Positions 2,357 through 31,076 of a stretch of 32,000 bases of DNA are shown piece after piece. Numbering within the stretch: the stretch's first letter is position 1; each line of letters begins with the position of its first letter. Source of the stretch: Segetibacter sp. (GTDB lineage: Bacteria > Bacteroidota > Bacteroidia > Chitinophagales > Chitinophagaceae); contig JAJKIP010000122.1 of assembly GCA_021154405.1 (NCBI GenBank), forward strand, positions 7,874-39,873, read 5' to 3'. The notes below the pieces were generated by a model. The model worked only from the letters and a program-made list of their open reading frames with translations, was not told the DNA's origin and ran no database searches. Both the position numbers and the translations under genes were made by a program.

Positions 2357-2357
2357 A

Positions 2358-6102: not shown

Positions 6103-6132
6103 GGCTGCCCAATTATTTTCCTGTTAAACATA

Positions 6133-6993
6133 TTAGGAGACCTGACTTTGCAGGTATACGCCATAGCCGCTGTTTTTATATTTAGCAGCAATTTGCAAAA
6201 GTTGATCCTTGGAAATAAACCCATTGCGATAAGCGACCTCTTCAATGCACCCTATTTTCGTTCCCTGTCTTTTTTCAATTACTCTCACAAACTCGCTTGC
6301 ATCACTGAGTGAATCAAAAGTACCGGTATCCAGCCAGGCAGTACCACGGTCCAATATGGCAACCTTTAGCTTTCCCCGGCGGAGATATTCTTTATTTACA
6401 TCAGTAATTTCATACTCACCGCGTGGCGATGGTTTCAGGTTCTCAGCAATATCAATTACTGCATTATCATAAAAATATAATCCGGGCACAGCGTAGTTGG
6501 ATTTAGGCTGCTTTGGTTTTTCTTCAATAGAAATCGCTTTGAGTTCACTGTCAAATTCAACAACACCATACCGCTCGGGATCTGATACCTGGTAAGCGAA
6601 TACATAGCCACCATCTATATCAGCCAGCTTCTTCAACTGACTACCCAAACCATATCCATAAAATATATTGTCGCCCAATACCAGGGCAACCTTGTCCTTT
6701 CCAACAAATTCTTTCCCGATCACAAATGCCTGAGCGAGGCCATTCGGAACCTGCTGGATGGCAAATTCAAATCGGCAACCGACCTGGCTGCCATCTCCAA
6801 GTAATCTTTTGAATGATGGATTATCTTCTGGTGTAGTAATGATCAAAACTTCGCGGATCCCTGCCATCATCAGGGTTGACAAAGGATAATAGATCATTGG
6901 CTTGTCGTAAATGGGCATCAGCTGTTTTGAAATCGCCTTTGTGATAGGATACAGTCTTGTACCGCTACCACCAGCCAGAATAATACCTTTCAT
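6133..6993 (-). CDS. rfbA: glucose-1-phosphate thymidylyltransferase
   Basis: [55 protein letters not shown]... matches RfbA/RmlA almost motif for motif (GGxGTRLxPxT, LGDNIFYG, C-terminal NSGYGxYL). Confidence 0.95.
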
Positions 6994-7005
6994 TGAATAA
7001 TAGTT

Positions 7006-7920
7006 TTATGGAGTTTTTTTAAGCCAGACTTCCAGTTGCATCCCTGTTTTGGTAGCTTTCATATACCAATTGATTAATGAATGAAAGATCCGGGGAACTT
7101 TCAGAATGTTTGCCGGATAAATGGTATGATCAACCACCCTGTATTTATTCCTTTCCTGATTTTCAAGGAAAGACTTCAGGGTGAATTCATGCATATGAAA
7201 AGGGGAATGCATTGGGCTGATATTGGTAACATAGGTAGTGCCCCTTAACCTGAAATAAAAATTAAAAACCCTGGAGAGGAAAAAATCAGAAGATGGCACT
7301 TCTATATGTATTACACCCTCCGGTCTTAACCAGTTTAATGCCTTTTTTATAGCAGCATCCGGATCATACAGATGTTCCATTACGGCAGAAAAAGTAATAA
7401 AATCAAAGCTCTCCGGTTCATATTCCAGATCTTCCAGCATGCAGTTCTTCAGCCTTTCAGGAGCTATATTCATTTTACCTATGGCCCGATCATAAAATGG
7501 CTTTGAAGGTTCTGCGCCAAAGGCTGTAAACCCTTCCCGTTCCAGAGATATCATTGATTTACCAATGCCAGCCCCTATATCAAGTGCATTCATGCCCTCT
7601 CTAAAAGGGAGTAATTTTTTGGCTTTGGCAATTTGTATTGAAAAGTAATTCGGATCTACATTAAAGTATTCCGGAACCCAGTAAGATTCTGGAGGGATCC
7701 CATAATGATCGTTTATCTCGTATGGTACCGGTTGAGGATTGCTATAGATAAGGCCACACTTAGTACATCTCATCACCGTCACAGAGATTCCTTTTGCTGA
7801 TCTGGGTCGAAGCCCCTGGGAACTATTTAGTCGCTGGCCAAGAATCTTATGCTTCTGAATCGGATCCTGGCACATATTGCACCGGGTAATTTTAAAAAAA
7901 TAATAATGAAGCCTTTCCAA
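7006..7920 (-). CDS. SAM-dependent methyltransferase with an N-terminal Cys4 zinc ribbon
   Basis: CNMCQD...CTKCGLIYSNP gives two CxxC pairs. These are followed by methyltransferase motif I, LDIGAGIGKS, and FDFITFSAVMEHLYDP. Confidence 0.75.
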   Translation of the reverse strand: MERLHYYFFKITRCNMCQDPIQKHKILGQRLNSSQGLRPRSAKGISVTVMRCTKCGLIYSNPQPVPYEINDHYGIPPESYWVPEYFNVDPNYFSIQIAKAKKLLPFREGMNALDIGAGIGKSMISLEREGFTAFGAEPSKPFYDRAIGKMNIAPERLKNCMLEDLEYEPESFDFITFSAVMEHLYDPDAAIKKALNWLRPEGVIHIEVPSSDFFLSRVFNFYFRLRGTTYVTNISPMHSPFHMHEFTLKSFLENQERNKYRVVDHTIYPANILKVPRIFHSLINWYMKATKTGMQLEVWLKKTP

Positions 7921-7925
7921 AAGTT

Positions 7926-9011
7926 TTAATTTTCGAGAACCTGCTTAAAGTATTTAACGTATTTGTTTTTCCAGGCTTCAACTGAATAACGATCGATAAC
8001 CGTTTGCCTTCCTGCTTCGCCAATCCTCTTGCGCAATTCCTGATCATTCATTAATGTCTCCAGGGTTGATACCCACTCCTCGTTTGTATCTGGTAAATAA
8101 CCATTCACTCCGGGAGTGATGATCTCTTTGTTTACACCTACAGGTGACATCAGGGTAGGAATGGACAGCGCCATATATTGTAATCCCTTTAACCCACATT
8201 TCCCTCTGGCCCATTCATCATCAGGCAAAGGCATGATACCAATATCTATCTCGGATAGATCTTCAATTTCAGTGGCAGCAACCCAGGCGACCCCCTTTGT
8301 ATCCAATTCTGCACAATAATATTTTGCATCGCCTATGATCTTAAACTCAACAGCATTCCCATACATTTCTTTGATCTTCTTTAAAAAAGGGATCGCTTTT
8401 TCAAAATGCTGTATAGTTGAAAAACTACCGCTCCATCCAATACAGATCCTGTCTTTACGTTTCCTGTTTTTTATGGGAACATAGATTTCAGTATCAATGG
8501 TAGTGGGAACAATAACTATGTTCTTATTAAATTTTGCAGCATAATCAGCAAGGAACTGGTTACCTGCAAATATCATGTCAGACAGAGCAATGATCTTGCT
8601 TGTTTTGGATGCATCCTTTAAAAAGGCCAGTCTCTTATTTGCAGCCGAAACGTTTTGCATCCATATTGAATCATCAAAATCAAATATGATCTTTGCTTTC
8701 GAACGAGCAAATCTTTTCTCAAAGAAAGTAGAACCCGTCATCAAGGCATCCCTGAAAATGAATATAATATCATACCGGTTCATAGAAAACCAGTCGCCCA
8801 TACGTATCATCAGCGTACTGCAATAAATCAATATTTTTTTCAAGTAGTTGCCTTTTGAATAAAAGGCTTTGTCATTCTTTTCGTTGAGAAGGATTGAAAG
8901 TTTACAGTCAAACCCGTTTTCTTTCAGGAAGTTTAAATACTGTTCAAACCTGAATCGCTGGCCAGGAGACCGGTTGGTTCTGTGAAGACAGATAAAAAGC
9001 ACTTTTTTCAT
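7926..9011 (-). CDS. GT-B fold glycosyltransferase (GT4/GT1-like)
   Basis: The C-terminal GLKGLQYMALSIPTLMSPVGVNKEIITPGVNGYL is the E/G-rich nucleotide-sugar binding region typical of GT-B retaining transferases. The size (361 aa) and context also fit. Confidence 0.7.
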   Translation of the reverse strand: MKKVLFICLHRTNRSPGQRFRFEQYLNFLKENGFDCKLSILLNEKNDKAFYSKGNYLKKILIYCSTLMIRMGDWFSMNRYDIIFIFRDALMTGSTFFEKRFARSKAKIIFDFDDSIWMQNVSAANKRLAFLKDASKTSKIIALSDMIFAGNQFLADYAAKFNKNIVIVPTTIDTEIYVPIKNRKRKDRICIGWSGSFSTIQHFEKAIPFLKKIKEMYGNAVEFKIIGDAKYYCAELDTKGVAWVAATEIEDLSEIDIGIMPLPDDEWARGKCGLKGLQYMALSIPTLMSPVGVNKEIITPGVNGYLPDTNEEWVSTLETLMNDQELRKRIGEAGRQTVIDRYSVEAWKNKYVKYFKQVLEN

Positions 9012-9029
9012 ACTCTGGCGGAAGAAGGC

Positions 9030-10046
9030 TTATTGCTGGGCTTTTGATTTTGTGAGGATTTCCCATCCCTGAGGAAGTTTTTCCCGGATCTCAATATTTT
9101 CAAATTCCTGGCCTTGCCTTGCTCCTACGCGTTTCGCCCATGCAGCCATACGTGCTATTCCCTTTTCCAGTGTGACCTCCGTAGGACTGCCAAAGACCTT
9201 GTGCGCCTTTGTATGATCGGAATAGGCATGCATTACTTCATTTCTTGCCTGTAAGTAATTAATATCTGGTTTTACATTGAATTCATTACAAACTACCGTA
9301 GCCAGTTCATTTACCGTATAGGGCTTATCAGCTCCAATATTGAATATCTGGTTTTGCGCCGCGCTGATATCTACGGACCGGGCAATGGGAATAGCTACAT
9401 CATCAATGTAACTGAAAGCCCGCGTTTGCGTACCATCTCCAAAAACTGTCAATTGATTTCCCTGCATGATCTGGTTCATAAAAATACCGATCACATTTCT
9501 GTATTTATCTCCAATGTTCTGGTTTTCGCCATAGACATTGTGAGGGCGAAAGATCACATAATTCAATCCAAACATTTCATGGGCAGCTTTAAGATCCAGC
9601 TCCACCGCATATTTTGATACCCCATATGGATCTTCAGGTTCCGGTGTCATTTCTTCTGTCATAGGCAACTGTCCCTTTCCATACACGGCTATGGAAGAGG
9701 TGAAAACAAAACATTTTACTTTTGCCTTAACTGCCTCATTGATCAGGTTAATACTACCAATAAGGTTTGTATTATAATTATATCGCCTGATAAAATGGGA
9801 GAGGCCCTCTGCAGCATAGGCGGCAAGATGGTATACATAATCAAACCTGTACTTATAAAAAAGGTCACTGATAAACTGATGATCGGTTACACTGCCCTTA
9901 ATAAAGGTAGCAGCTTCCGGTACGTGATCTTCAAATCCCCCACTTAAATCGTCTATGGCAATCACGTTATGGCCTGCGGCCAGGCAATGTCGGACCACAT
10001 GCGAACCAATAAAGCCCGCTGCGCCTGTAATTAATGAAGTTGGCAT
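9030..10046 (-). CDS. extended-SDR NAD-dependent epimerase/dehydratase (possible dTDP-4-keto-6-deoxyhexose reductase/epimerase)
   Basis: ITGAAGFIGSHVV Rossmann motif and catalytic YGVSK (YxxxK). Its start lies 1 nt after the rfbB stop. The substrate is inferred only from that coupling. Confidence 0.7.
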   Translation of the reverse strand: MPTSLITGAAGFIGSHVVRHCLAAGHNVIAIDDLSGGFEDHVPEAATFIKGSVTDHQFISDLFYKYRFDYVYHLAAYAAEGLSHFIRRYNYNTNLIGSINLINEAVKAKVKCFVFTSSIAVYGKGQLPMTEEMTPEPEDPYGVSKYAVELDLKAAHEMFGLNYVIFRPHNVYGENQNIGDKYRNVIGIFMNQIMQGNQLTVFGDGTQTRAFSYIDDVAIPIARSVDISAAQNQIFNIGADKPYTVNELATVVCNEFNVKPDINYLQARNEVMHAYSDHTKAHKVFGSPTEVTLEKGIARMAAWAKRVGARQGQEFENIEIREKLPQGWEILTKSKAQQ

Positions 10047-10047
10047 G

Positions 10048-11100
10048 TTAAGATTGATATTGCTTTGTGTAATATTGTTGGTATTCCCCGGAAGTTACAT
10101 GTTTTAGCCACTCGGTATTCTCTAAATACCAATCAATTGTCAGACCAAGTCCCTGCTCAAACGTTACTGAAGGCTTCCAACCCAGTTCTGAACTGATTTT
10201 TGTGGCATCTATTGCATATCGCCGGTCATGTCCGGGACGATCTTTTACATAGGTTATCAATTTCTCACTGGTACCAGGTGAGTTACCGAGCTTCTCATCC
10301 ATCAATTTACATAGCAATTTTACAAGTTCTATGTTTTTCCATTCATTAAAACCGCCAATATTATAGGTTTCTCCGGGTTTACCCTGATGAAATACGAGAT
10401 CAATAGCCAGGGCATGGTCTTTAACAAAAAGCCAGTCGCGGGTATATAAACCATCCCCATATACTGGTAATGGCTTTTTCTGGATAATATTATTAATGAA
10501 TAAAGGTATCAGCTTTTCCGGGAAATGGTAGGGGCCGTAGTTATTAGAGCAATTACTAAGTACTATCGGAAGGGAATAGGTGTCATGATAAGCCCTTACG
10601 AAATGGTCCGAAGCCGCTTTGGAAGCACTGTAAGGAGAATGGGGATCATACCTTGTTGATTCTGTAAAAAATCCCGTTTGTCCCAAAGCTCCATATACTT
10701 CATCAGTAGAAACATGATAAAAGCGTCTGTCCTGAAAGCTTCCCTGCCAGGCCTTTTTAGCTGCATTAAGCAAATTTACCGTGCCGATCACGTTGGTATA
10801 TACAAAATCCAGGGGAGACACAATTGACCGGTCTACATGAGATTCAGCTGCCAGATGAATAACCCCGTCGGGATTATATTTTGCAAATAGCGCATCAAGC
10901 CCTTCAACATCAAGTATATTTTGTTTCTCAAAATTATAATTGGGGCTTTTCTCAATATCCCTGATATTTTCCAGATTGCCTGCATACGTTAGCGCATCCA
11001 GATTTACAATTTGATAGCTGGGGTATTTGGTAACAAACAGGCGAACAACATGGGATCCTATAAAGCCCGCTCCTCCTGTGATAACAATTGTCTTGGACAT
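10048..11100 (-). CDS. rfbB: dTDP-glucose 4,6-dehydratase
   Basis: ITGGAGFIGSHVVR...LDALTYAGNLENI...HLAAESHVDRSI...STDEVYG...SPYSASKAASDH...RPGHDRRYAID are the canonical RfbB/RmlB blocks. Confidence 0.93.
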   Translation of the reverse strand: MSKTIVITGGAGFIGSHVVRLFVTKYPSYQIVNLDALTYAGNLENIRDIEKSPNYNFEKQNILDVEGLDALFAKYNPDGVIHLAAESHVDRSIVSPLDFVYTNVIGTVNLLNAAKKAWQGSFQDRRFYHVSTDEVYGALGQTGFFTESTRYDPHSPYSASKAASDHFVRAYHDTYSLPIVLSNCSNNYGPYHFPEKLIPLFINNIIQKKPLPVYGDGLYTRDWLFVKDHALAIDLVFHQGKPGETYNIGGFNEWKNIELVKLLCKLMDEKLGNSPGTSEKLITYVKDRPGHDRRYAIDATKISSELGWKPSVTFEQGLGLTIDWYLENTEWLKHVTSGEYQQYYTKQYQS

Positions 11101-11108
11101 AATCGTGA

Positions 11109-12068
11109 TTATAAACGTGCAGAATTTTTTTTATACCAGTTATAAGTAATTTTCAGGCCTTGCTCAACAGATGTCTGGGGATTATAACCGAGAAGGTTTT
11201 TAGCTTTGGAAATATCGGCAAGGCTGTGTTTAACATCTCCGGCGCGTTCCGGACCGAAATGTGGTGACAGTGTGCTTCCGGCTTCCTGTTTTAATACTTC
11301 AAAAAGCTCAGACAGTGTTGTCTGGCTGCCATAAGCTATATTATATACCTGGTTCAGCGCTTCTTTTTTATCTGCAAAAAGAGCGGCAATATTTGCCTGC
11401 ACGGCGTTGTCCACAAAAGTAAAGTCACGACTATGTGTACCGTCACCATTTATGACAGGAGGTTTGTTTTCCAGGATCGCTTTTACAAAAAGGGGGATGA
11501 CAGCCGCATAAGGACCCTGAGGATTCTGCTTTGGCCCGAATATATTAAAGTATCGAAGTCCAATGAAATCAAGCTGGTAAAGGCTGGAAAATACCTGCGC
11601 GTATAACTCATTCACGTATTTGGTAACTGCATAAGGCGAAAGGGGATTTCCAATCCTGTCCTCCTTTTTGGGCAAGCCGGGATGGTCCCCATAAGTAGAT
11701 GAACTGGCTGCATAAACAACACGCTGTACCTTCCTTTCTTTGGCAGCAGTGAATATGTTCAGGGTACCGGTGATATTCACGTCATTGGTTGTAAGAGGGT
11801 CATTAATTGAGCGTGGCACCGATCCAAGTGCAGCCTGATGGGAAATGCCGTCTATTTTCTCACATGCCTGCAGGCATACATTATAGTCCCTGATATCACC
11901 ATCAATAAATTCAAACCGGCCCATTCCTTCAAATTCACGAATGTTCTCCATCGACCCCGTAGCAAGGTTATCTAAAACCCTGACAAGAGTAACACGGTTA
12001 TCCTTTAATAATTTATCTACAAGGTTGGAACCGATAAACCCGGCTCCGCCGGTAACTAGAACTTGCAT
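11109..12068 (-). CDS. extended-SDR nucleotide-sugar epimerase (WbpP/TviC-like)
   Basis: VTGGAGFIGSNLVDKLL...LDNLATGSMENI...SPYAVTKYVNELY resemble the UDP-GlcNAc/UDP-GalNAc(A) 4-epimerase subgroup (LDNxxTG). The subgroup assignment is tentative. Confidence 0.7.
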   Translation of the reverse strand: MQVLVTGGAGFIGSNLVDKLLKDNRVTLVRVLDNLATGSMENIREFEGMGRFEFIDGDIRDYNVCLQACEKIDGISHQAALGSVPRSINDPLTTNDVNITGTLNIFTAAKERKVQRVVYAASSSTYGDHPGLPKKEDRIGNPLSPYAVTKYVNELYAQVFSSLYQLDFIGLRYFNIFGPKQNPQGPYAAVIPLFVKAILENKPPVINGDGTHSRDFTFVDNAVQANIAALFADKKEALNQVYNIAYGSQTTLSELFEVLKQEAGSTLSPHFGPERAGDVKHSLADISKAKNLLGYNPQTSVEQGLKITYNWYKKNSARL

Positions 12069-12122
12069 CTTTTAAAGAGTTAAAATATAATTGGCGGCTT
12101 TACACTCATCATGCTTTTGATA

Positions 12123-13199
12123 TTACGCGGATGGCTTAAACATTCTGTTTATCACTCTTTCCCTGATACTTAAGAATTTCTCTTCTATCAGGATTGTAAA
12201 CAACATCGCTGTCCCAAACGAAACGATCAAATAAACCAGAAATGCTATTAAATTAATTCCGAGATAGTGGCTGATTATTAGTACAAACATTGAGTGCCAC
12301 AAATACCAGTTATAACTGTAATAAGCGATGAAACGAAAAGGCTTCCATTTTGAAAAATCATGATAGTACAGGCCAAGGATCATGAGAAAAAAGCAAAAAG
12401 GGGAAACTGAATAAAAAACTACTTTTTTGAAATAGTAGTTATCCCAGTTAACATATAAGGTAAGGCCTGCAGCAAATAAAAGCACACCAATAGGAAATAA
12501 GATCTTCAATTTTGTCTGTTTTTGAAGAAAGGATCCAAAATAATTAATGAAAACAGCAAGCAAAACTCCCCATCCAAGAGCATCTAATTTATTGTGGGTC
12601 CCCATGTAAGTATCTCCACTTTTAGTCAGAAACAAGCTCAATATTTTAAAAACTATTCCAGCGAGAATCATACAACCAACAGTCAAAAAAAGGTACTGTA
12701 GCCTGTTGCTGAATATTTTTGCTGTAATAATCAGGGCTAAGGGCAATAAAAGATAAAAGTGCTCTTCAATGCATAGCGACCATACAACATCAAAAGGGAT
12801 ATGAGCTGGCCCCCCTGTATAATTTTGGTAAAAAAAGATGTATCGCGAAATATCCTTGAAGTTCGGATTGATTATAAAATAACGGTCAAGATTACTATAA
12901 AACAATATGGCAACTATTGAACCGAAAAGCAAAAACCAGTAATAAGAAGGCCATATTTTGAACCCCCTTTGAAAAATAAATTTCCAAAAATTTATTCCAT
13001 TGGGCCCTTTGAACTGGTTAATAACAATTCCGCCCACGAGCAGACCAGAAATCACAAAAAAGAGATCCACGCCAAAATAACCATAGGGAAGAAACCCATT
13101 GAAATGGTAAAATACTACCGAAAGAATTGCAACCGACCTGAATACATCAACACTTGCTATACGTTTATTAGACTGAAGTACCTGACTCGATTTAAGCAT
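12123..13199 (-). CDS. acyltransferase family 3 membrane protein (polysaccharide O-acetyltransferase type)
   Basis: The N-terminal RIASVDVFRSVAILSVVFYHF is the acyltransferase-3 signature with its conserved His. The protein has about 10 hydrophobic segments and lies inside the EPS locus. Confidence 0.8.
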   Translation of the reverse strand: MLKSSQVLQSNKRIASVDVFRSVAILSVVFYHFNGFLPYGYFGVDLFFVISGLLVGGIVINQFKGPNGINFWKFIFQRGFKIWPSYYWFLLFGSIVAILFYSNLDRYFIINPNFKDISRYIFFYQNYTGGPAHIPFDVVWSLCIEEHFYLLLPLALIITAKIFSNRLQYLFLTVGCMILAGIVFKILSLFLTKSGDTYMGTHNKLDALGWGVLLAVFINYFGSFLQKQTKLKILFPIGVLLFAAGLTLYVNWDNYYFKKVVFYSVSPFCFFLMILGLYYHDFSKWKPFRFIAYYSYNWYLWHSMFVLIISHYLGINLIAFLVYLIVSFGTAMLFTILIEEKFLSIRERVINRMFKPSA

Positions 13200-13207
13200 A
13201 TAAATAT

Positions 13208-13297
13208 TCAGGAAATCTGACGCCTGAAATAATTACCATAACCACTGTTTTTAATTACTGCCGCAATTTCAAGTAACTCATTCTCTGTCATTAATCC
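13208..13297 (-). pseudogene. 3'-terminal relic of a second glucose-1-phosphate thymidylyltransferase (rfbA) gene
   Basis: Hand translation of the minus strand gives GLMTENELLEIAAVIKNSGYGNYFRRQIS followed by a stop. This aligns without gaps to the last 29 aa of the intact RfbA in this window ([29 protein letters not shown]) with 15/29 identities, including the NSGYGxY block. An in-frame TAG lies immediately upstream, so only the tail survives. Confidence 0.7.
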
Positions 13298-13308
13298 CTA
13301 TCTGAAAA

Positions 13309-15717
13309 CTATTTCTTCAATCCTACCCACCGGCGTGGATCTATTTTTGAAATAAATTTTTCAAAAGAAGATATTGGCTTTGCCTCTTCTTCGTAATAGC
13401 TGCTTTTCTGTGCATAGCCGTAACCATACCCATATCTGCCATATCCATAATATCCGTATCCTGGCTTTAATTTCACATCATTAATGATTATGCTTACTCT
13501 GGGCAATTTTTTTTCCTCGTAAAACTCATCAATCAGGGTGATTTGTTTTTTAAAGGTGTGCCCCTGGCGAACAAGATATAAAGTACAGTCTGCAAATTTT
13601 CCCAAAGTCATTGCGTCGCTTACCATTCCTACCGGAGCAGTATCAACAATGATTGCTTCAAAATTGGCACGGAGCTTTGTAAACATATCAGTCACCTTCG
13701 GATCCAGCAATAGTTCTGAGGGATTTGGTGGAATTGGTCCGCAGGGCAACACAAATAGATTGGGTTGATCGGGAACGGGGATGATCAGGTCTTCCAATTC
13801 ACCTTTGCCCAGCAGGTAATTACTAATTCCTGATTTTTTACTCATCCCAATACCTGAAAGTATCTTGGGTTTCCGTATGTCAAATTCAAGAATAACAGTT
13901 TTCTTTCCGGCCAATGATAATACGGCGCCTATGTTTATACTTACAAATGATTTACCCTCACCGCTAACCGAAGAGGTAACCATGATCACAGGCTGAGTTA
14001 TTTGTGGTAGAATATATTGAAGGTTTGAACGAATGATCCTGAATTGTTCCGCAACCATTCCGCGACTTGTTTTATTTACAATCAACGTTTTTTCCGAATA
14101 AGAATGCCCTACTTCTCCAAGTATGGGCGCCTTGGTTATTCTTTCAATATCAAACCTGGTACTTACTTTATCATTGACCACTTCTGCAATAAATATGATA
14201 AGTGCCGGCAGTCCAAGGCCAATTAGCACAGCCAGAATTTGTATGGCTCTTTTATTGGGTTTAACCGGAGTGAGAGATGGAGTGGCCAAATTAATGATCT
14301 TGGAATTTGAAATGGTTGATGCCCTCCCGATTGCAGCCTCTTCTCTTTTACCCTGTAATAGATTATAAAGAGTTAGTTTCGTATTGATCTGACGCTCCAT
14401 TTCTACCAGCTCTTTCAGCTTAAAAGGCATTGCCTTTAATTCAGATTCGTCGAAAGAGCTCTTTGTTTTCAGCGTTTCAATACTGGACGCATAAACAGCC
14501 CTGACATTTTTTAGATTTTCCAGGATACTTTCCCTTAATTTTTCTATCTGTCCTTCCACTTCCTTTACCGCAGGATTTTCGATTGGCACTTTGGAATCCA
14601 GCAGTGACTGTCTTTCCAGTTGCGCTTTGTTATATCCCGCAACCAGTTCATTCAATGTAAGGTCCTCGAGCCCCAGTGAAGAGGGAACAACTATTCGCAG
14701 ATATTCTTTGCTTTTATCTTTAAGGTAGCTTGTAATATCGTCTGCAATTGACAACCTGAACCGCTGCTCATTAATAGATTTATCTGCCTCACCTATCCTT
14801 TCAAAATAATTTGAAGACTGCACCTCAGGATCGATGAGATTATTAAGCTGCTTATATCGAAGGTATTTAGCTTGCAGCGTGTCAATTTCTCGCGTAAAAA
14901 TATTTAACCGCTCATCTATGAAATGAAGCATTTGATCAGTGGAAAAATTGTTTTGCTCAACGGTCATTGAATCATACTGAACCATCAATGAATTCACAAT
15001 ATCAGCGGACATCAAGGCACTTGAAGTCTGAATGCTCACAGCTACAATACCAGTTCCGGGCGTTTGGGGTTGTACCTTTAAATTAGTAACCAGGTTGCTT
15101 GCCACTACACTGGTGGGATCCCAATTGACGGTAAATTCGCTACCAGGGCTTATGTTTCCTGTTTTTATCAGCCTGAATATTCCATGCTTGTTTTGAAATA
15201 CTTTACCGAATGAAAAATTTGATTCATTGTCTATCCGGAACATCTGACTGTTAACCATCTTGATCTTTGTTGAAAAAGAGGCACTGGAGTCAGCTATTTC
15301 ATATACTTCCATTTGGAATGGAGCAAGTTTGTATACATTGAATTCTTTAATCTTTCCATTGGCTATGTAACTTACCTGAAGATGTATCCGGTTCACAACT
15401 CTTTCCATCAAAGGCCGTGACCGCATAATTTCAATCTCATTCTGTATGTTCTGGGAACGATTGCTACCTTCAAGGATGTCCTCAACCTTGTCTTCACGGC
15501 TCGCTGGCTTCTCGTTTTTAATAAGCATGGTACCCGTAGAACTGTAAATGCGTGTAGAATATCTCAGGTATATCCAGGCTACCAGCAGGGCGGCAGCAAG
15601 CGACAATAAAAACAAAGGCAGAAACCTTACATATTTATAAAAAATATCCCTGGCACTAAGGCCCCATAATTCACCCCTGTTGGTATTGCCATTATTTATA
15701 TTTACATGATCTTCCAT
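13309..15717 (-). CDS. wzc: Wzc-type polysaccharide co-polymerase / BY-tyrosine kinase
   Basis: N-terminal TM segment plus a long coiled periplasmic region. The C-terminal kinase domain has Walker A SSVSGEGKS, A' ILEFDIRKP and Walker B IIVDTAPVG. The Tyr-rich tail reads KPGYGYYGYGRYGYGYGYAQKSSYY. Confidence 0.9.
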   Translation of the reverse strand: MEDHVNINNGNTNRGELWGLSARDIFYKYVRFLPLFLLSLAAALLVAWIYLRYSTRIYSSTGTMLIKNEKPASREDKVEDILEGSNRSQNIQNEIEIMRSRPLMERVVNRIHLQVSYIANGKIKEFNVYKLAPFQMEVYEIADSSASFSTKIKMVNSQMFRIDNESNFSFGKVFQNKHGIFRLIKTGNISPGSEFTVNWDPTSVVASNLVTNLKVQPQTPGTGIVAVSIQTSSALMSADIVNSLMVQYDSMTVEQNNFSTDQMLHFIDERLNIFTREIDTLQAKYLRYKQLNNLIDPEVQSSNYFERIGEADKSINEQRFRLSIADDITSYLKDKSKEYLRIVVPSSLGLEDLTLNELVAGYNKAQLERQSLLDSKVPIENPAVKEVEGQIEKLRESILENLKNVRAVYASSIETLKTKSSFDESELKAMPFKLKELVEMERQINTKLTLYNLLQGKREEAAIGRASTISNSKIINLATPSLTPVKPNKRAIQILAVLIGLGLPALIIFIAEVVNDKVSTRFDIERITKAPILGEVGHSYSEKTLIVNKTSRGMVAEQFRIIRSNLQYILPQITQPVIMVTSSVSGEGKSFVSINIGAVLSLAGKKTVILEFDIRKPKILSGIGMSKKSGISNYLLGKGELEDLIIPVPDQPNLFVLPCGPIPPNPSELLLDPKVTDMFTKLRANFEAIIVDTAPVGMVSDAMTLGKFADCTLYLVRQGHTFKKQITLIDEFYEEKKLPRVSIIINDVKLKPGYGYYGYGRYGYGYGYAQKSSYYEEEAKPISSFEKFISKIDPRRWVGLKK

Positions 15718-15741
15718 TCAAAAGAAATTATATTCTTACCG

Positions 15742-16536
15742 TTACTTAAAAATGTTATAAACCAGCGCTATGGCAGTAACTATGCTAAGCCCAAAACTGA
15801 CTCTTTGAATGACCAGATCCTGGTCGGTTTTCTTAGCCTTTTTTGGTGTAGGATCAACTATCACCATATCATTTTGCCGAAGGGTGTAATATGGAGATTC
15901 AAAAAGTTGTTTGGAAGAAAGGTCAACCACCCCTATTTCCCTTTTTCCATCTGTTTCCCTTATCACTTTTACGGAAGTTTTTAATGCATAGTCGGTAAGC
16001 CCACCCGCCATTCCAACAGCTTCAAGCAAGGTGATCCTTTCACTGGGAATTGTAATAACCCCTTGCCTGTTCACCTCCCCAATGACGGTAACTTTTAAAT
16101 TCTGAAACCGGATAATAACGGTAGGGTCCTCCAATAATTTTACAGGTTCGGTTAATCTTTTTTTGATTTCATTTGCCAATTCCTCTCTTGTCAGGCCTTC
16201 AGCGTGAATAACACCCAGTTTGGGATGATGGATATTGCCATCTACATCTACCAGGAAACCAGGTGATGTGGCGCTACTACTGCCTCCCTGGCTGGAAAGA
16301 CCTCCAGAAACAGTTCCCAGATTATATATCGCATCCACTTCAGATTTGGTAGTGGTGCTATAAATCTGAATTGAGAGAAGATCATCTTTCTGAATGCGCA
16401 AAACTGGGGTCTGTAAAGTCCCTTTACCAGATGTATCCGTTACATTTTGGATATAATTGGGGATTTTTTGCTGAGTGCTGCAGGAGATTATATATAAAGG
16501 GAAAATTAAAATTGAGAGAGAACGGAGGAATTTCAT
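15742..16536 (-). CDS. wza: Wza-type polysaccharide export outer-membrane lipoprotein
   Basis: Lipobox-like LYIISCS. A Poly_export-like region (LRIQKDDLLSIQIY) is followed by an SLBB-like region (VTVIGEVNRQGVITIP...LLEAVGMAGGLT). The gene lies immediately upstream of wzc. Confidence 0.85.
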   Translation of the reverse strand: MKFLRSLSILIFPLYIISCSTQQKIPNYIQNVTDTSGKGTLQTPVLRIQKDDLLSIQIYSTTTKSEVDAIYNLGTVSGGLSSQGGSSSATSPGFLVDVDGNIHHPKLGVIHAEGLTREELANEIKKRLTEPVKLLEDPTVIIRFQNLKVTVIGEVNRQGVITIPSERITLLEAVGMAGGLTDYALKTSVKVIRETDGKREIGVVDLSSKQLFESPYYTLRQNDMVIVDPTPKKAKKTDQDLVIQRVSFGLSIVTAIALVYNIFK

Positions 16537-16579
16537 TTATAGTTCTTTAATGGTAATACGCGGCTTAAAGGCTATGACC

Positions 16580-17134
16580 CTATCCTTCAGATCGGGCCGA
16601 AGTTAATTTAGTTCTGTCAATATAGGCCACCAGCACATATCCCAGGCTGTCAATTGCTATTTTCACTGTTTTTCTATGCACGCTTAATACCTGCCCTTCT
16701 TTATCCATAAGTGGGCCGGTGGTAATCTTTACCCGCTGGTCTACCCGGAAGTTAATGGGTTTAACTTCCACATTTTCATACTCATCGAGAAAGCGGCGAA
16801 TGGCATTGATCTCTTTTTCCCGGATTACAGCCGGTTTCCCTTCCCAATAAACAAAATTGATGACCCCTGGTGTCATGCGCACATTAATGCGGTCATTATC
16901 ACTCACCTTTACGAAAACATAAGACTTAAAGAGTGGCTCTTCCACTACTTTAACCCGGTCACTCCATTTGCGTCTCACCTTATTGAGTGGACAATAGCTC
17001 TCCAGTCCCTTTTCCTGAAGAAGCTGGTTGATTTTTTTCTCCCAACGGGGCTTGCTATAGACTGCCAACCATTTTCGGGTCATCGAAGATTTTTTTGACG
17101 GCTTCGCCACCTCAGTCACATGGGTTAGTTTCAT
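16580..17134 (-). CDS. UpxY-family (NusG-like) transcription antiterminator
   Basis: WLAVYSKPRWEKKINQLLQEKGLESYCPL...PLFKSYVFVK is an NGN domain, and there is a C-terminal KOW-like region (VKITTGPLMDKEGQV). It is the first gene of the polysaccharide operon, as is typical in Bacteroidota. The true start may be the internal ATG at 17083 (MTRKW...). Confidence 0.8.
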   Translation of the reverse strand: MKLTHVTEVAKPSKKSSMTRKWLAVYSKPRWEKKINQLLQEKGLESYCPLNKVRRKWSDRVKVVEEPLFKSYVFVKVSDNDRINVRMTPGVINFVYWEGKPAVIREKEINAIRRFLDEYENVEVKPINFRVDQRVKITTGPLMDKEGQVLSVHRKTVKIAIDSLGYVLVAYIDRTKLTSARSEG

Positions 17135-17980: not shown

Positions 17981-19123
17981 ATGAACCAACGCTTCTATTC
18001 GCTTGATGTGTTTCGTGGCGCAACTGTTTGCCTGATGATCCTTGTAAATAATCCTGGCTCCTGGTCACATATCTATCCACCATTGGAACATGCGCCCTGG
18101 CACGGATTAACTCCAACAGATCTGGTATTCCCTTTCTTTCTTTTTGCAGTAGGAAATGCATTATCGTTCGTTATGCCAAGACTGGAAGCGGGTGGTGATG
18201 CTGCGTTCTGGAAAAAGGTGATCAAAAGAACAGCATTAATATTCCTGATTGGCTTATTTCTGAACTGGTGGCCATTTGTACGCTGGACAGATGGGCATCT
18301 CTCGTTTATTCATTGGGTAAATCCTGCTGATGAAACAAAAGGGGTGCGCATCCTGGGTGTGCTACAACGCATAGCGCTTTGTTATTTTTTTGCCTCCATT
18401 ATCATTTATTACTTTAAGATCCGCAGAGCATTTTATATAGCCCTTTTATTATTGCTTGTATACTGGCTTGTTTGTGTTTTAGGTAATCCTTCTGATCCGT
18501 TCAGCATGCAGGGCTGGTTTGGAACTGATATCGATAAAAAAATACTCGGCGTTCCACACATGTATAAAGGAGAAGGTGTTGCTTTTGATCCGGAAGGGAT
18601 CATGAGTACTATGGCCGCTATTGCAGAAGTAATATTCGGCTATATGATCGGAGATTATATTCAGAAAAAAGGCAAAACCCATGAAATGGTTAGTGGATTG
18701 TTTGTAGCAGGAGTTGCCTTAATAGTTACCGGATACTGCTGGGATATGGTATTCCCGATCAATAAGAAGATCTGGACAAGCTCGTTCACCATTTATACCT
18801 CCGGACTTGCCACTCTGACAATTGCAACTATGATCTATCTCATAGAATTCAACAACAAAAGAAATTTTCTTACAAGATTCTTTGATGTATTTGGGAAAAA
18901 TGCATTGTTTGTATTTGCACTCAGTGCATTTCTGCCAAAAGGGTTGTCACTGATCAGGATGGGCGATGGAGTAAACCCATGGAACTTTCTTTATACAAAA
19001 GTATTTTCAAATGTACCTGGTGATCCAAGACTGGGTTCCCTGTTCTACGCAATATGTGTAATCATATTCATGTGGGCCATCTGCTATTTTATGGATAAGA
19101 AAAAGATATACATCAGAGTTTAG
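17981..19123 (+). CDS. HGSNAT/DUF5009-like integral membrane acetyltransferase family protein
   Basis: RFYSLDVFRGATVCLMILVNNPGSWSHIYPPLEHAPWHGLTPTDLVFPFFLFAVGNA is the characteristic N-terminal block of the heparan-alpha-glucosaminide N-acetyltransferase-like family (COG4299). The protein has multiple TM helices. Confidence 0.75.
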   Translation: MNQRFYSLDVFRGATVCLMILVNNPGSWSHIYPPLEHAPWHGLTPTDLVFPFFLFAVGNALSFVMPRLEAGGDAAFWKKVIKRTALIFLIGLFLNWWPFVRWTDGHLSFIHWVNPADETKGVRILGVLQRIALCYFFASIIIYYFKIRRAFYIALLLLLVYWLVCVLGNPSDPFSMQGWFGTDIDKKILGVPHMYKGEGVAFDPEGIMSTMAAIAEVIFGYMIGDYIQKKGKTHEMVSGLFVAGVALIVTGYCWDMVFPINKKIWTSSFTIYTSGLATLTIATMIYLIEFNNKRNFLTRFFDVFGKNALFVFALSAFLPKGLSLIRMGDGVNPWNFLYTKVFSNVPGDPRLGSLFYAICVIIFMWAICYFMDKKKIYIRV

Positions 19124-23068: not shown

Positions 23069-23101
23069 CAAACAGGTCTTGGCTTCGCCATGACCTGTTT
23101 G
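23069..23101 (+). terminator. hairpin downstream of the DUF62 gene (possible terminator)
   Basis: A perfect 10-bp inverted repeat, caaacaggtc ... gacctgtttg, with a 13-nt loop. It starts 25 nt after the stop codon. The trailing T-tract is weak (catttggg). Confidence 0.45.
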
Positions 23102-23238
23102 CATTTGGGACTGTTAGTAAGCCCGCACTTTTACAGAACTTATCCACAAGCCGGCTCCCGAATGGAAAATGCCCTCCCCGCCTTTAAAATAATTGTAAAT
23201 TCAGTTCACATAAATTCCAAACTCCAATAGATACTGTT

Positions 23239-24282
23239 ATGAACAACGCTACTATCAACTTCCCGAGTATTTTCGAAACAGCCTTCGGAAATACTGAAAA
23301 CTCAGCAAAAGATCTTCTTAATGGTTTAAAAATTAAACGAGGCGAGAAATGGTATTTGGTTGGCAACCTCGCCAGGAAAGGAGCTGTTAGTCCCGGGCGC
23401 GTAGTTAATGCCGCGCCAACTGAAGAAGATTTTGATATCCTGTTCCGCTCAGCCATTACCAATGTCGTAGAAAAAGTAGAGCATCCTTTTGTAATAACTC
23501 TTGGTTTCCCTTTCTCCACATACAACGTTTATAAATCAGCTGCGGAGCATTACCTGGCCAAACGCCATTTCATGCTGGATTATGATACAAGGACTTTTAA
23601 TCTCAAAGGAAGCATTCGCAAAAACACATTCATTGTTGATCAATACGAAGTGATCCCTGAAATAGTAGGTGGTATTATCGGACTGAAAAAAATATTACCG
23701 CATGCAGAAAATGAAAACTTCATTGCCTTAAGCTTCGGTTTTGGCACCATGGAAGGAGCATTGGCAAGTTCAGATGGCCTGGTGCATCGTACCAATTTTA
23801 GCTCTCACGGTATTCGCTATGTGATCAATAACCTCGGTCGTGAATTAAGCCAGAAATATTTCCTGGAAATGAAGAATGAATATCAGCTGGATGAAGCTTT
23901 CATCAAAGGATCATTGTTTACCAACAGGAAACGCATCGATCTGACAGATTTGAAAAAAGAATTATTGACCCAGTATTATAAAGAGGTTGTATCACCTCAA
24001 TTGCGTAAACATTTTACCGATGCTGACCTTGAAAGTTGCGACAAGATCTATCTCATGGGTGGTGGCGCCAATTATACTGAATTGTATGATGCAATAAGGG
24101 AAGAGTTCGCCGGATTTATCCCGGTAGAAGTAGCTCCACATCCAGAATACATTATCAGTATTGGTTACCTCTACAATTCATTGAGGATTTCAGATTCAAA
24201 GGCAGCACGCTGTATAGGCATTGACTTAGGTAATGCCACTACAGCAGTTTCCTATTTTGAAAACCTGCCAGCGAACCAGTAG
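23239..24282 (+). CDS. actin-like ATPase (ParM/StbA/Alp-type)
   Basis: VIPEIVGGIIGL precedes a phosphate-2-like FIALSFGFGTMEGA. An adenosine motif KIYLMGGGANY is present, and the C-terminal end of the fold reads PHPEYIISIGYLYN. The extra C-terminal IGIDLGNATTAVSY is covered in the findings. Confidence 0.65.
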   Translation: MNNATINFPSIFETAFGNTENSAKDLLNGLKIKRGEKWYLVGNLARKGAVSPGRVVNAAPTEEDFDILFRSAITNVVEKVEHPFVITLGFPFSTYNVYKSAAEHYLAKRHFMLDYDTRTFNLKGSIRKNTFIVDQYEVIPEIVGGIIGLKKILPHAENENFIALSFGFGTMEGALASSDGLVHRTNFSSHGIRYVINNLGRELSQKYFLEMKNEYQLDEAFIKGSLFTNRKRIDLTDLKKELLTQYYKEVVSPQLRKHFTDADLESCDKIYLMGGGANYTELYDAIREEFAGFIPVEVAPHPEYIISIGYLYNSLRISDSKAARCIGIDLGNATTAVSYFENLPANQ

Positions 24283-24291
24283 GATTTATTA

Positions 24292-24756
24292 ATGAAACTC
24301 GACAGCCTGTTAAGCTCCAGTCATCGCAAGGACAGCTTCCTTATCCCAAAAGAGATGATGATCACCGGTACGATCCAGACGGATTCACCGGGACAGATAG
24401 CTGGTATAATCAATGGTGATGTGCTCACTAAAAGCCGGATCATTATTCTCAAAGAAGGAATTATCAATGGAGATGTAACAGCCGATGAATTGCTTGTTTA
24501 TGGAAAGATCAATGGCCATGTGAAGAGTTGTAACAAGATCAACGTTCAGAGCGGTGCTGTCATTAAGGGAAATATCAACACAGCGGAGATCCATATGGAG
24601 AAGAATGCAAAGATTGGTGGCATCATCACCAAATCAGACGTTCAGACCCTGACCAAAAACAAAGAAACTCCAAAGAAAAAGGAGACTCCTGCTTCAACTA
24701 TTGAACCGGTCCCTGCCGCCAAAGATCAGAACACGGAGCGGCAGGCCTGGTTCTGA
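24292..24756 (+). CDS. bactofilin (DUF583 polymer-forming cytoskeletal protein)
   Basis: Repeating beta-helix pattern ITGTIQTDSPGQIAGIINGDVLTKSRIIILKEGIINGDVTADELLVYGKINGHVKSCNKINVQSGAVIKGNINTAEIHMEKNAKIGGII, plus a Lys/Pro-rich disordered tail. The start lies 9 nt after the actin-like gene's stop. Confidence 0.8.
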   Translation: MKLDSLLSSSHRKDSFLIPKEMMITGTIQTDSPGQIAGIINGDVLTKSRIIILKEGIINGDVTADELLVYGKINGHVKSCNKINVQSGAVIKGNINTAEIHMEKNAKIGGIITKSDVQTLTKNKETPKKKETPASTIEPVPAAKDQNTERQAWF

Positions 24757-25030
24757 ATTAGAAATTCTCTCCTTCTTATCAAATAAGACAGGAGTTATAA
24801 AAGGCCATAAACCGTTTCTGAAATTTTATTGATGCCTGGATGACAAACAGGATCTGTAACATTGTTCCCCATTTTCGGCCTATTTGGCATTCAATGAGCC
24901 GGTTTTATTTAATAGTATTCACTTATTTTATCCCAGACACAGGATTTTTATAATCGGTGATTTCTTCCCGGCATGTAAAAAATCGGCTCCCGGTTTTCTC
25001 GCAGTCTGCTTGCAGTTTCTTGTGGCCTTG

Positions 25031-25063
25031 TTCGACTCTCATTCGACTCTCATTCGACTCTAA
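25031..25063. repeat. three tandem copies of an 11-bp unit (ttcgactctca)
   Basis: ttcgactctca ttcgactctca ttcgactctaa, read directly from the sequence. A degenerate inverted copy lies at 25139-25166. Confidence 0.85.
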
Positions 25064-25138
25064 GTCGATTTTCAGTTGTATAAGAGTCAATTTTCAACAG
25101 AATGCCAGTTTGTCCTGTTCGCTCGCCGGCGAAGCCGG

Positions 25139-25166
25139 GTCGAATGAAAGTTGAATGAGGTCAAAA
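25139..25166. repeat. degenerate inverted copy of the 11-bp tandem array
   Basis: The reverse complement, ttttgacctcattcaactttcattcgac, aligns to ttcgactctcattcgactctcattcgac with one gap and a few mismatches. Confidence 0.6.
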
Positions 25167-25226
25167 TAAGAACCCATAAGCTTCCCTTAAGGGCACAGGT
25201 ATCAATCAGGATACTGCTGCTGACCC

Positions 25227-29349: not shown

Positions 29350-29781
29350 ATGGATGAGGAAGAATTCTATGGAGCCGCCTACAAGGGTTCCAAACAGTTT
29401 ACCCAGCAACAGGTAAAAACTGCCAATGCAACCGGTTTTGGTGCGGCTGCCGATGATTTTATGGAACGCGGCATTGATCTCAATGAACAACTGATCCGCA
29501 ATAAACCTGCAACGTATTTTTTTCGCATGAAGGGCGATGCCATGCGTGAAGCTGGCATATTCGATAATGATGTACTAATAGTAGATCGTTCAATCAAGCT
29601 GGGTGAAGGAAGGATCATAGTTGCCATTCTCAACGGTGAAATGCTGGTGAGACGTTTTCATAAAAACTTTTCCTCCGCCTTTCTGATACCGGAGAATAAT
29701 CGGTACAAGGCCATCAACCTGGCGGAGTTCACTGATTTTTCCGTATGGGGGGTAGTCACTTTCGTGATCCATGCGGTGTAA
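29350..29781 (+). CDS. umuD: UmuD-like S24-family protein with a substituted catalytic dyad
   Basis: It aligns block for block with E. coli UmuD as I recall it: GFGAAADDFMERGIDLNEQLIRNKPATYFFRMKGDAMREAGIFDNDVLIVD...NGEMLVRRF...VWGVVTFVIHAV versus [37 protein letters not shown]...DGEFTVKKL...VFGVVIHVVK. It lies immediately upstream of umuC. Confidence 0.85.
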   Translation: MDEEEFYGAAYKGSKQFTQQQVKTANATGFGAAADDFMERGIDLNEQLIRNKPATYFFRMKGDAMREAGIFDNDVLIVDRSIKLGEGRIIVAILNGEMLVRRFHKNFSSAFLIPENNRYKAINLAEFTDFSVWGVVTFVIHAV

Positions 29782-29792
29782 ACAATTACAGC

Positions 29793-31076
29793 ATGAAAGC
29801 AATCGTAGACTGTAATAATTTTTACTGCTCGTGTGAGCGATTGTTCAAACCATGGCTCGAAAATAAGCCGGTAGTGGTATTGAGCAATAATGACGGTTGC
29901 ATTGTATCAAGAAGTGATGAAGCCAAGAAATTTGGTGTTGAAATGGCGGGCCCTTATTTCATGGCAAAACCCCTGATTCAAAAACATGATATCGCCGTAT
30001 TCTCCTCCAATTATAATTTATATGGTGACCTCAGCTGGCGGGTAATGGAAACACTCCGGCTGATGCTTGGTAAAAAAAATGTGGAAGTATATTCAGTTGA
30101 TGAAGCCTTTGTTGACCTCTCTGGTTTTACCCTGGATCAGCTTCCCGCCATTGCCCGCGAAATAAGAGAAACGGTTGAGCAATGGACAGGCATCAGGGTA
30201 TCTGTTGGTGTGGCTCCAACCAAAGTGCTGGCCAAACTCGCCAATCGTTTTTCTAAAAAAGAAAAACAACGTACAGGATGTGTCACTGTATTTGATTCCG
30301 AAGAAAAGATCCTTGATGCTCTGCGAAAAACAGCTGTGGGTGATATCTGGGGTGTAGGCAGAAGATACGCGCACAGCCTGCAGGAAAATTGGGGAATATT
30401 TGATGCCCTGCAACTACGGAATGTAAGTGAAGAATTTGCCCGCACTCACCTGGGTGGAGTTACCGGTGTTCGCCTGGTAAAGGAACTGAGAGGTGAAATA
30501 GCCCGCGAAATGGAAGATGAACTGACCAATAAAAAAATGATCGCAACTACCAGGATGTTTGGATCACCTGTTAGTGATATCAATGCCATCAAAGAAGCTA
30601 TTGCTACCTATACTTCCAGAGCTGCTGAAAAATTACGTCGCCAGCACAGCGCTGCCAGCATGATCAGCATATTTGTTGTCACAAAAGACCAGGACCATAT
30701 GTTGGGATTTAACAAAAGCGGTACCATCAGCACCTATACTAATTTACCTGCTGCCACCTCTATAACCAATGAACTCATTAAACCGGCCGTTGCTATGGTG
30801 GACAGGTTGTACAGGAAAGACACCATGTATAAAAAAGCTGGTGTAATGCTAAGTGGCATCATCCCTGATGAATCCATCCAGGGCAATCTATTCCTCTCTG
30901 AAACTAAAAACTGCGAAAGAAAACTGATGGATATGATCGACAATATCAATTTCAGCCAGCGAGATGACGTGCTTAAATTTGCGGCCTCTGGTACAACCCG
31001 CGACTGGAAAATGCGGCAGGAAATGAGAAGCGGCAGATATACAACAAGATGGGAGGAACTTTTTGAAGTTCATTAA
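29793..31076 (+). CDS. umuC: Y-family DNA polymerase V catalytic subunit
   Basis: MKAIVDCNNFYCSCERLFKPWLENKPVVVLSNNDGCIVSRSDEAKKFGV...FSSNYNLYGDLSWRVM...YSVDEAFVDL...VGVAPTKVLAKLAN closely parallels UmuC. I place the start at the ATG at 29793 rather than the track's 29745, which overlaps umuD. Confidence 0.9.
   Translation: MKAIVDCNNFYCSCERLFKPWLENKPVVVLSNNDGCIVSRSDEAKKFGVEMAGPYFMAKPLIQKHDIAVFSSNYNLYGDLSWRVMETLRLMLGKKNVEVYSVDEAFVDLSGFTLDQLPAIAREIRETVEQWTGIRVSVGVAPTKVLAKLANRFSKKEKQRTGCVTVFDSEEKILDALRKTAVGDIWGVGRRYAHSLQENWGIFDALQLRNVSEEFARTHLGGVTGVRLVKELRGEIAREMEDELTNKKMIATTRMFGSPVSDINAIKEAIATYTSRAAEKLRRQHSAASMISIFVVTKDQDHMLGFNKSGTISTYTNLPAATSITNELIKPAVAMVDRLYRKDTMYKKAGVMLSGIIPDESIQGNLFLSETKNCERKLMDMIDNINFSQRDDVLKFAASGTTRDWKMRQEMRSGRYTTRWEELFEVH

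Follow-up and report, generated by a model that had tools for sequence, protein, structure and literature searches.

A chromosomal gene pair of Bacteroidota encoding a bactofilin with a terminal tryptophan motif and a ParM-related actin-like protein of circularly permuted topology

What is an actin-like protein (ALP) of the ParM/Alp type doing next to a bactofilin on a bacterial chromosome? The question is raised by a locus of Segetibacter sp. (assembly GCA_021154405.1, contig JAJKIP010000122.1), analyzed here as part of a stretch of 32,000 nt, positions 7,874 to 39,873 of the contig. This stretch is called the window, and all coordinates count from its first letter. The ALP gene (23239–24282, + strand) encodes 347 aa and the bactofilin gene (24292–24756, + strand) encodes 154 aa. 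They are separated by 9 nt (24283–24291), which is consistent with an operon. An earlier inspection of the bare letters, the sequence-only reading, had already described both open reading frames (ORFs), their spacing and the ALP motifs VIPEIVGG and MGGGANY, and all of these are found as described. Actin homologues and bactofilins are two of the main classes of cytoskeletal polymers in bacteria, and they have been studied separately so far. To all appearance, the pair is a cytoskeletal system of two polymers that has not been described. We consider it moderately probable that it is a self-contained chromosomal cytoskeletal module, in which a filament system derived from ParM uses a bactofilin polymer as its tail-docking adaptor, with morphogenesis as the probable role.

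The first point is whether the two genes belong together. In a collection with one genome per species, relatives were present in 111 stretches, and the best 80 of these 111 loci were analyzed. All 80 are annotated as Chitinophagaceae or Chitinophagales, except two labelled only "Bacteroidetes bacterium". Bactofilin is encoded directly 3' of the ALP in 80/80 loci. It was found by tblastn at 79 of them, and the divergent copy at the remaining locus (L078) was confirmed by ORF inspection and Pfam. The gaps between the two genes range from about −30 to +130 nt, many of them from −1 to +30 nt; apparent overlaps of −62 to −101 nt at some loci are due to over-extended start calls. A metagenome scan with diverse family members yielded 80 further loci. 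Their ALPs are 40–57% identical to the query, except three that are near-identical or close. Seventy of these loci include at least 500 nt downstream of the ALP, and a same-strand bactofilin follows directly in 48 of the 70. The diverse loci with bactofilin include Cytophagales, Bacteroidales and Balneolales. Named carriers are Balneolales, Roseivirga, Cyclobacterium, Lunatimonas, Lunatibacter, Odoribacter, Culturomica and Candidatus Azobacteroides, and the module is also seen in two high-GC lineages (68% and 74% GC).

The surroundings of the pair are not kept. Clustering of all flanking ORFs in search of a conserved third gene revealed synteny at the genus level only, and none of the window's other neighbors is present in the 80 species-genome loci, one upstream ORF described at the end apart. 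As a two-gene unit, the ALP and the bactofilin are genuine and widely conserved in Bacteroidota and related groups. That two unrelated genes have become neighbors by chance is hardly conceivable, as the same-strand adjacency persists at both sets of loci despite the turnover of their flanks, and as the partner bactofilin carries a specific tail motif (see below).

The next question is what kind of protein the ALP is. Its homologues (n = 197) fall in one common length class. The AlphaFold2 model, built on 19 homologues, has a pTM of 0.80. Foldseek matched this model to polymerising actin homologues with a top E-value of 3.5e-13 and a probability of 1.0. Ta0583, pCBH ParM, Dh-cParM1, pSK41 ParM, Alp12, MreB and CorM are matched with E-values from 3.5e-13 to 1e-9, and the TM-scores of the best matches are about 0.6–0.7. 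MreB structures rank below the ParM-type matches, as do Hsp70 nucleotide-binding domains, and no sugar kinase is among the 50 matches listed. Judged from the model, the identity of the ALP as an actin-fold (ASKHA two-domain) protein is far beyond chance. The sequence-only reading had considered that the closest characterized homologues might be non-polymerising ASKHA enzymes, such as sugar kinases or Hsp70-like proteins; this is not what was found, because the best structural matches are polymerising actin homologues.

Primary sequence searches are much less informative. The native ALP reaches 25.3 bits against MreB-like_C, below the cut-off of 27.8, and 17 bits against the NCBIfam ParM model NF010498, of which the threshold is 417. 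It has no match to PF06723 (MreB_Mbl). Searches of PDB sequences with the native ALP, and with the de-permuted version introduced below, found no match.

Nucleotide-binding motifs are nevertheless recognizable. VIPEIVGG (23650–23673, + strand) corresponds to residues 138–145, where P140, E141, V143 and G144 are invariant in the alignment of close homologues and the Glu is invariant in the wider alignment as well. We take Glu141 to be the counterpart of the catalytic Glu of ParM. The adenosine-binding motif YLMGGGANY (24049–24075, + strand; residues 271–279) contains G274, G275, G276 and A277, invariant among both close and wider homologues. A phosphate-1 motif, GIDLGN (residues 327–332), is located near the C-terminus, and its G327, D329, G331 and N332 are invariant in the alignments. 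This motif and the end of the bactofilin had been overlooked in the sequence-only reading. Since three elements are invariant, namely the Glu within PEIVGG, the GGG of the adenosine motif and phosphate-1, nucleotide binding is under selection.

The phosphate-2 motif is remodelled. The GFGT noted earlier is indeed present, in SFGFGTMEG (23731–23757, + strand; residues 165–173), but the canonical Asp is replaced by Ser and the second Asp by Glu (SFGFGTME versus the canonical DxGxxTxD). This is a family trait: SxGxGTxE is seen in 242/257 permuted members, and DxGxxTxD in 23/29 canonical relatives. The Ser presumably occupies the position equivalent to D170 of ParM.

Only two internal regions of the ALP model have pLDDT below 50: residues 11–28 (23269–23322) and 43–59 (23365–23415). 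Both are rich in invariant residues (E13, T14, G17, N21, D25 and L26 in the former; N43, A45, R54 and N57 in the latter). Going by the model, they may be interface segments that become ordered upon binding.

The position of phosphate-1 leads to the second peculiarity of this protein. In canonical actin-like proteins, phosphate-1 stands at the N-terminus. The ALP begins ('..INFPSIFE..') with the equivalent of strand 3 in canonical actin-like proteins. This strand, with its FPS motif, covers residues 3–13 (23245–23277, + strand; DSSP strand 3–9). Phosphate-1 is contained in a C-terminal beta-hairpin, CIGIDLGNATTAVSYF (24211–24258, + strand; residues 325–340). DSSP assigns strands 325–330 and 334–340 after the last helix of the model, with a block-mean pLDDT of 91 for residues 321–330 and 76 for residues 331–340. 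Sequence and model thus agree that the ALP is circularly permuted, the phosphate-1 hairpin (strands 1–2 of the actin fold) being relocated to the C-terminus. The sequence-only reading had taken the protein for an ordinary ParM/Alp. The actin fold stands; the ordinary topology and the ordinary phosphate-2 do not.

Reversal of the permutation restores a recognizable domain. The native ALP has no match to Pfam ALP_N even at E-values up to 10. When residues 324–343 are put before residue 4, ALP_N matches with 47 bits (E = 3.9e-12, cut-off 26.3) over profile positions 1–146 of 148. A precise splice is needed, as another de-permuted construct, in which the disordered termini were kept as a 12-aa insertion, gave no ALP_N match. 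At the level of profiles, the de-permuted family profile gains 3–9 bits on most canonical relatives, often aligning up to their N-terminus, and the native profile gains 8–10 bits on the distant permuted members P0208, P0219 and P0237.

Relatives were sorted by topology with an exhaustive profile search. Permuted relatives align end to end with the ALP, the FPS strand first and GxDxGN last. The canonical relatives are weaker matches, offset by about 20 residues; they show DxGxGxxK of phosphate-1 first and FPS afterwards, and are without the C-terminal motif. The close homologues are permuted in 120/120 cases, with none canonical and none unclear. Among the 120 broader homologues listed, all 113 of at least 300 aa are permuted and lack an N-terminal motif; in 101 of them the motif is near the C-terminus, and in 12 long tails extend beyond it. 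Matches of at least 300 aa from the exhaustive search comprise 24 permuted, 29 canonical and 9 unclear proteins. The actin fold tolerates the moving of its phosphate-1 strand pair, which is relevant to the evolution of ASKHA ATPases and to protein engineering. It can be speculated that the relocated hairpin completes the nucleotide site of the neighboring subunit in trans and so ties assembly to catalysis.

A ParM-type actin suggests DNA segregation, and the locus could be read as an ordinary integrated type II (ParMRC-like) partition cassette, or as a segregation device for chromosome or plasmid. In database sources, the family goes under the names 'ParM/StbA family protein' and 'plasmid segregation protein ParM', and distant permuted relatives, described below, look like cassettes of ParM and a small adaptor. 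There is also an 11-bp tandem repeat downstream of the pair, TTCGACTCTCA, present in 3–4 copies at 25020–25074 in the spacer between bactofilin and purU and followed, about 80 nt farther on, by an incomplete copy in inverted orientation (25139–25159). This repeat is absent from all related loci and without a significant Rfam match. It was rejected as a part of the module or a centromere because it is unique to the window.

The other components of a partition cassette were not found either. Inspection of ORFs and repeats bears out the earlier statement that the locus has no ORF for a ParR adaptor of the ribbon-helix-helix (RHH) type and no iterated, parC-like repeats in 23102–23238. Bactofilin occupies the adaptor slot. 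No conserved non-coding flank was found upstream or downstream in related loci. Over the 32-kb window there are no plasmid, phage or integrative and conjugative element (ICE) genes, again in line with the sequence-only reading, which had warned of an integrated partition cassette; neither ParR/parC nor such a backbone was found. The permuted family has no match in 72,556 plasmids, 50,697 phages and 2.9 million viral contigs, the sole exception being a weak canonical ParM match for P0187. In 80 species, the module has a stable place on the chromosome, in varied housekeeping contexts. Partition is therefore very improbable as the function of this locus, and both this reading and chance adjacency are effectively excluded. 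The label 'plasmid segregation protein ParM' is probably misleading for these chromosomal genes. The ALP should not be filed as ParM, because it fails in motif order, in curated thresholds, in phosphate-2 and in the ParR, parC and mobile context.

If bactofilin takes the place of ParR, how could it act as an adaptor? The protein matches PF04519 with 68.8 bits (cut-off 27.9, E = 4.8e-19). In its AlphaFold2 model, the beta-helix covers residues 16–114, with block-mean pLDDT of at least 94 over residues 21–110. The K/P-rich tail reported earlier is a linker rich in Lys, Pro and Glu (residues 115–152; 24634–24747, + strand). Its predicted disorder shows in the pLDDT, which stays under 50 throughout residues 118–150 (block means of 32–39 over residues 121–150) and climbs to 61 at the last four residues of the protein. 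The chain ends with Trp-Phe (W153/F154; 24748–24753, + strand), which we propose as a docking motif.

The linker differs in length and sequence among partner bactofilins, but its end does not. WF terminates 81/81 partner bactofilins of Chitinophagales. At the distant loci, Trp is present within the last three residues of 44/47 complete partner bactofilins, with ends such as WW, FW, AW, LW, DW, EW, KW, GW and NW. The context of the motif is acidic, for example EEEQNTSWF. The motif is absent from control bactofilins, namely upstream second copies at eight loci, a non-adjacent copy at L087, and Firmicutes proteins. The upstream second copies (about 125 aa, no terminal Trp) lie directly upstream of the ALP at L138, L145, L150–L152, L155, L167 and L169, giving a trio of bactofilin, ALP and bactofilin(WW). 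The C-terminal tails of bactofilins are mostly unconserved, one exception being BacP, the tail of which binds PadC (PMC12448750).

Based on these features, the following mechanism can be considered. The ALP would be an NTP-binding filament former of the ParM/Alp clade, its polymerisation being suggested by its nearest structures. The bactofilin would form a nucleotide-independent beta-helix polymer, in which each subunit contributes a variable disordered linker with the terminal aromatic WF. Such a polymer would be a multivalent platform displaying many flexible tails, and the tails would dock onto the ALP via the terminal Trp motif. At a defined site, docking would recruit filaments of the ALP, nucleate them or stabilize them. 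In ParMRC, parC carries an array of many ParR tails, which capture the ends of ParM filaments; the bactofilin polymer would fill the role of ParR on parC, or that of membrane-bound CorR in CorMR. The likely purpose would be morphogenesis of the cell envelope, not DNA segregation. The sequence-only reading had likewise imagined a composite scaffold, in which a dynamic nucleotide-driven filament is anchored or templated by a static one; both the physical scaffold and the dynamic nature of the actin-like partner are plausible on this mechanism.

Several observations weigh against this picture; they are taken up in this and the next three paragraphs, together with findings on relatives that speak for it. 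Mutation of Asp170 abolishes the ATPase activity of ParM. Because Ser replaces the phosphate-2 Asp in the ALP, hydrolysis may be poor and the ALP less dynamic than ParM. The same replacement, spread across the permuted family, would fit a protein that is not a filament former at all. The ALP could be an adaptor or regulator with an actin fold, either monomeric or dimeric and comparable to PilM or to FtsA with its bound FtsZ C-terminal peptide, and it would then cap, anchor or regulate bactofilin polymers. The two highly conserved ALP segments with low model confidence could be understood in this way, and the well-known FtsZ-FtsA pair likewise combines a polymer with a variable linker and a conserved C-terminal peptide. 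Nevertheless, the nearest structures are polymerising actins of the ParM and Ta0583 types, not FtsA or PilM, and the residues of the nucleotide site are strictly conserved. We regard a non-filamentous ALP as distinctly unlikely.

The distribution of bactofilin is another such point. A bactofilin is missing in 22/70 distant loci, and several ALPs seem to do without it. Some permuted ALPs are 430–665 aa long (P0420 at L175/L176, P0372 at L177, and P0123, P0402 and P0413) and have a long Lys/Glu-rich tail of their own, with conserved YEPDFS or KTGMW at its end. For P0420 and P0372, the two neighborhoods checked contain no bactofilin neighbor. As far as sequence tells, ALPs with their own tails and no bactofilin appear complementary to the arrangement with a tail on the bactofilin. 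ALPs from rumen and gut metagenomes (L123–L135) end in ..LKFK or ..LRFK; they have no downstream bactofilin, and the genes downstream are mutually unrelated. Since bactofilin-less ALPs carry an aromatic-ended tail of their own, binding of such motifs to a third factor fits equally well. The two proteins might accordingly act in one pathway with the terminal Trp motif bound to a third partner or the membrane instead of the ALP, and make contact by way of their folded domains, or only indirect contact. Known clients of bactofilins, such as PbpC, bind the core domain, not the tail (PMC12448750). The acidic context of the motif, however, is unlike basic-hydrophobic membrane anchors, the precedent of ParR and CorR is docking of a tail to an actin, and the motif is limited to the bactofilin in the ParR slot. 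A third partner as the target of the tail is thus rather unlikely in our judgment. As a separate observation, the permuted ALP P0125 (L081/L082) has no bactofilin and is convergent to a secretin gene, and the gene after this secretin has a sub-threshold T2SS-M-like Pfam match (17.7 bits, cut-off 21.7).

Other relatives speak for the picture and point to an origin of the module. Six distant permuted ALPs (profile E-values of about 1e-11 to 1e-4) have an abutting gene of 87–130 aa in the bactofilin slot. The products combine a basic N-terminus with a strand and two helices (read by eye), and their tails are disordered. In the four genes that are complete, the encoded tail bears an aromatic or hydrophobic motif at its C-terminus or close to it (DSFFSN, DKDDW, MGFEENP or GMFFKGKS). 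The small products resemble ParR by position, size and sequence pattern only; neither Pfam nor PDB revealed ParR homology, which also counts on the negative side. So does the N-terminus of the bactofilin: MKLDSLLSSSHRK is unlike the membrane-targeting consensus MFSKKKK, and its amphipathicity is not significant (hydrophobic moment not above shuffled sequences, 0.25). The scaffold may be associated with the membrane.

Cell-wall enzymes speak on both sides. The pairing of bactofilin and M23 peptidase is a known morphogenetic unit (PMC10945521). In favor of a morphogenetic role, at least five distinct lineages have Pfam-confirmed M23 peptidase genes within the module. The gene orders are M23-ALP (L087/L088), M23-bactofilin-ALP-bactofilin(WW) (L145 and L150/L151), ALP-bactofilin-M23-bactofilin (L166) and ALP-bactofilin-...-M23 (L099). 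On the negative side, no M23 gene adjoins the module in the window or in Chitinophagales, and a BLAST search with the M23 protein of L088 found no match in the 80 Chitinophagales loci.

Comparison with known systems shows that the folds and the logic of an adaptor tail are known, and that their pairing and the topology are new. ParMRC systems (ParM-R1, pSK41 ParM, pCBH ParM, AlfA/AlfB and Alp7A/Alp7R) share the actin fold of the ParM/Alp clade, a second gene immediately downstream in adaptor position, and an adaptor tail that is flexible and carries a conserved motif at its C-terminus. They differ from the present pair, which has a circularly permuted chain and Ser for Asp in phosphate-2, has no parC, is chromosomal and is absent from plasmid and phage collections, and of which the adaptor would be a bactofilin polymer instead of the DNA-binding RHH protein ParR. 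Among the structural matches, Ta0583 of Thermoplasma and the chromosomal cParMs (Dh-cParM1) are the best. The cParMs are chromosomal like the ALP; both they and Ta0583 have the canonical topology, unlike the ALP. Most cParM cassettes keep ParR and some are apparently without it, and bactofilin is not mentioned (PMC12270681).

CorMR is the closest functional precedent. In Anabaena, cell shape is under the control of CorMR, in which CorM is bound by the C-terminal peptide of CorR (bioRxiv 10.1101/2025.06.27.661541). This repurposed chromosomal ParMR (PDB 9rmi) resembles the present pair in having a chromosomal ParM-type actin and a conserved C-terminal motif of the adaptor, and CorM is among the structural matches. 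The adaptor recruits CorM by its C-terminal peptide, and an equivalent docking is what we infer here. The systems differ in that CorR is a ParR (RHH) protein with an N-terminal amphipathic helix, CorM is unpermuted and the phylum is another; here the adaptor would be a bactofilin.

Bactofilin modules, too, offer parallels. BacA-LmdC and CcmA-Csd (M23 peptidases), BacA-PbpC and BacNOP-PadC-ParAB each combine a bactofilin scaffold with a co-encoded client. A tail motif of BacP binds PadC, and M23 is co-encoded with the ALP module in several lineages. In the present case, the client would be an actin-like NTPase, the tail has an invariant Trp motif at its end and the window has no M23. No report of an actin-like protein as a bactofilin client was found in the papers covered.

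FtsZ-FtsA is the closest architectural analogy. The C-terminal peptide of FtsZ binds FtsA, an actin-fold protein of non-canonical topology. Both arrangements thus consist of a polymer, a variable disordered linker, a C-terminal peptide and an actin-fold protein of non-canonical topology. The families have no relationship on either side (bactofilin and tubulin, ParM-like protein and FtsA), and there is no sign of a division role for the present pair.

As for novelty, no description of the pairing of ALP and bactofilin or of a permuted actin-like protein was found among the 8 million open papers and preprints searched, with subscription literature outside the search, in agreement with the earlier suspicion that the pairing is undescribed. 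It is tempting to go further and regard the pair as the first case in nature of a cytoskeletal actin fold with circular permutation, together with a swap of the adaptor from ParR to bactofilin, yielding a two-polymer morphogenetic cytoskeleton across Bacteroidota and Balneolota. This wider claim is tentative, and we are more inclined to doubt than to accept it in full. If true, a conserved operon linking both polymer classes would be a new type of composite cytoskeleton. It would also be, after the cyanobacterial CorMR, the second independent domestication of a plasmid-partition actin for cell biology, with the adaptor itself replaced. The invariant WF tail is a directly testable interaction motif. 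The module is carried by hundreds of genomes of Bacteroidota, Balneolales and others, including the cultured genera Chitinophaga, Roseivirga, Cyclobacterium and Odoribacter.

The immediate setting of the pair in the window is as follows. A terminator-like hairpin (23069–23101, + strand) lies 3' of the upstream gene, which encodes a SAM hydroxide adenosyltransferase (formerly DUF62), and forms the 5' boundary of the cassette. The 10-bp perfect stem noticed before is part of longer, 15-nt arms with a 3-nt loop: 10 perfect pairs are followed by one mismatch and 4 more pairs (14/15 paired, 93%). The hairpin has no counterpart in the related loci compared. A TonB-dependent receptor gene is located farther upstream. 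Downstream, the non-coding spacer is 470 nt long (24757–25226), as had been stated, and contains only short, unconserved ORFs. It is followed by a purU-type formyltransferase gene with an ACT domain, so that both flanking genes named in the sequence-only reading are present. The ALP and bactofilin ORFs share a reading frame, with TAG and three codons between them. Programmed read-through from the ALP into the bactofilin is unlikely, because the shared frame is not kept at other loci.

Elsewhere in the window, a large capsule or exopolysaccharide locus occupies 707–17134 on the − strand. It contains genes for GT2 and GT1 transferases, a flippase, an rmlA-like protein, three epimerases/dehydratases and an acyltransferase, together with a Wzc-like GNVR kinase, a Wza-like exporter and a NusG/UpxY-like antiterminator. 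A radical-SAM gene is also present. At 29350–29781, an ORF of 143 aa overlaps a Y-family polymerase gene (29745–31076; impB/mucB/samB domains), in an order like that of a umuD/umuC pair. Finally, the ORF at 17981–19123 (380 aa) has no Pfam match. It is the only neighbor in the window that is also seen upstream of the module in close relatives, with identities of 77% at L002 and 69% at L003.

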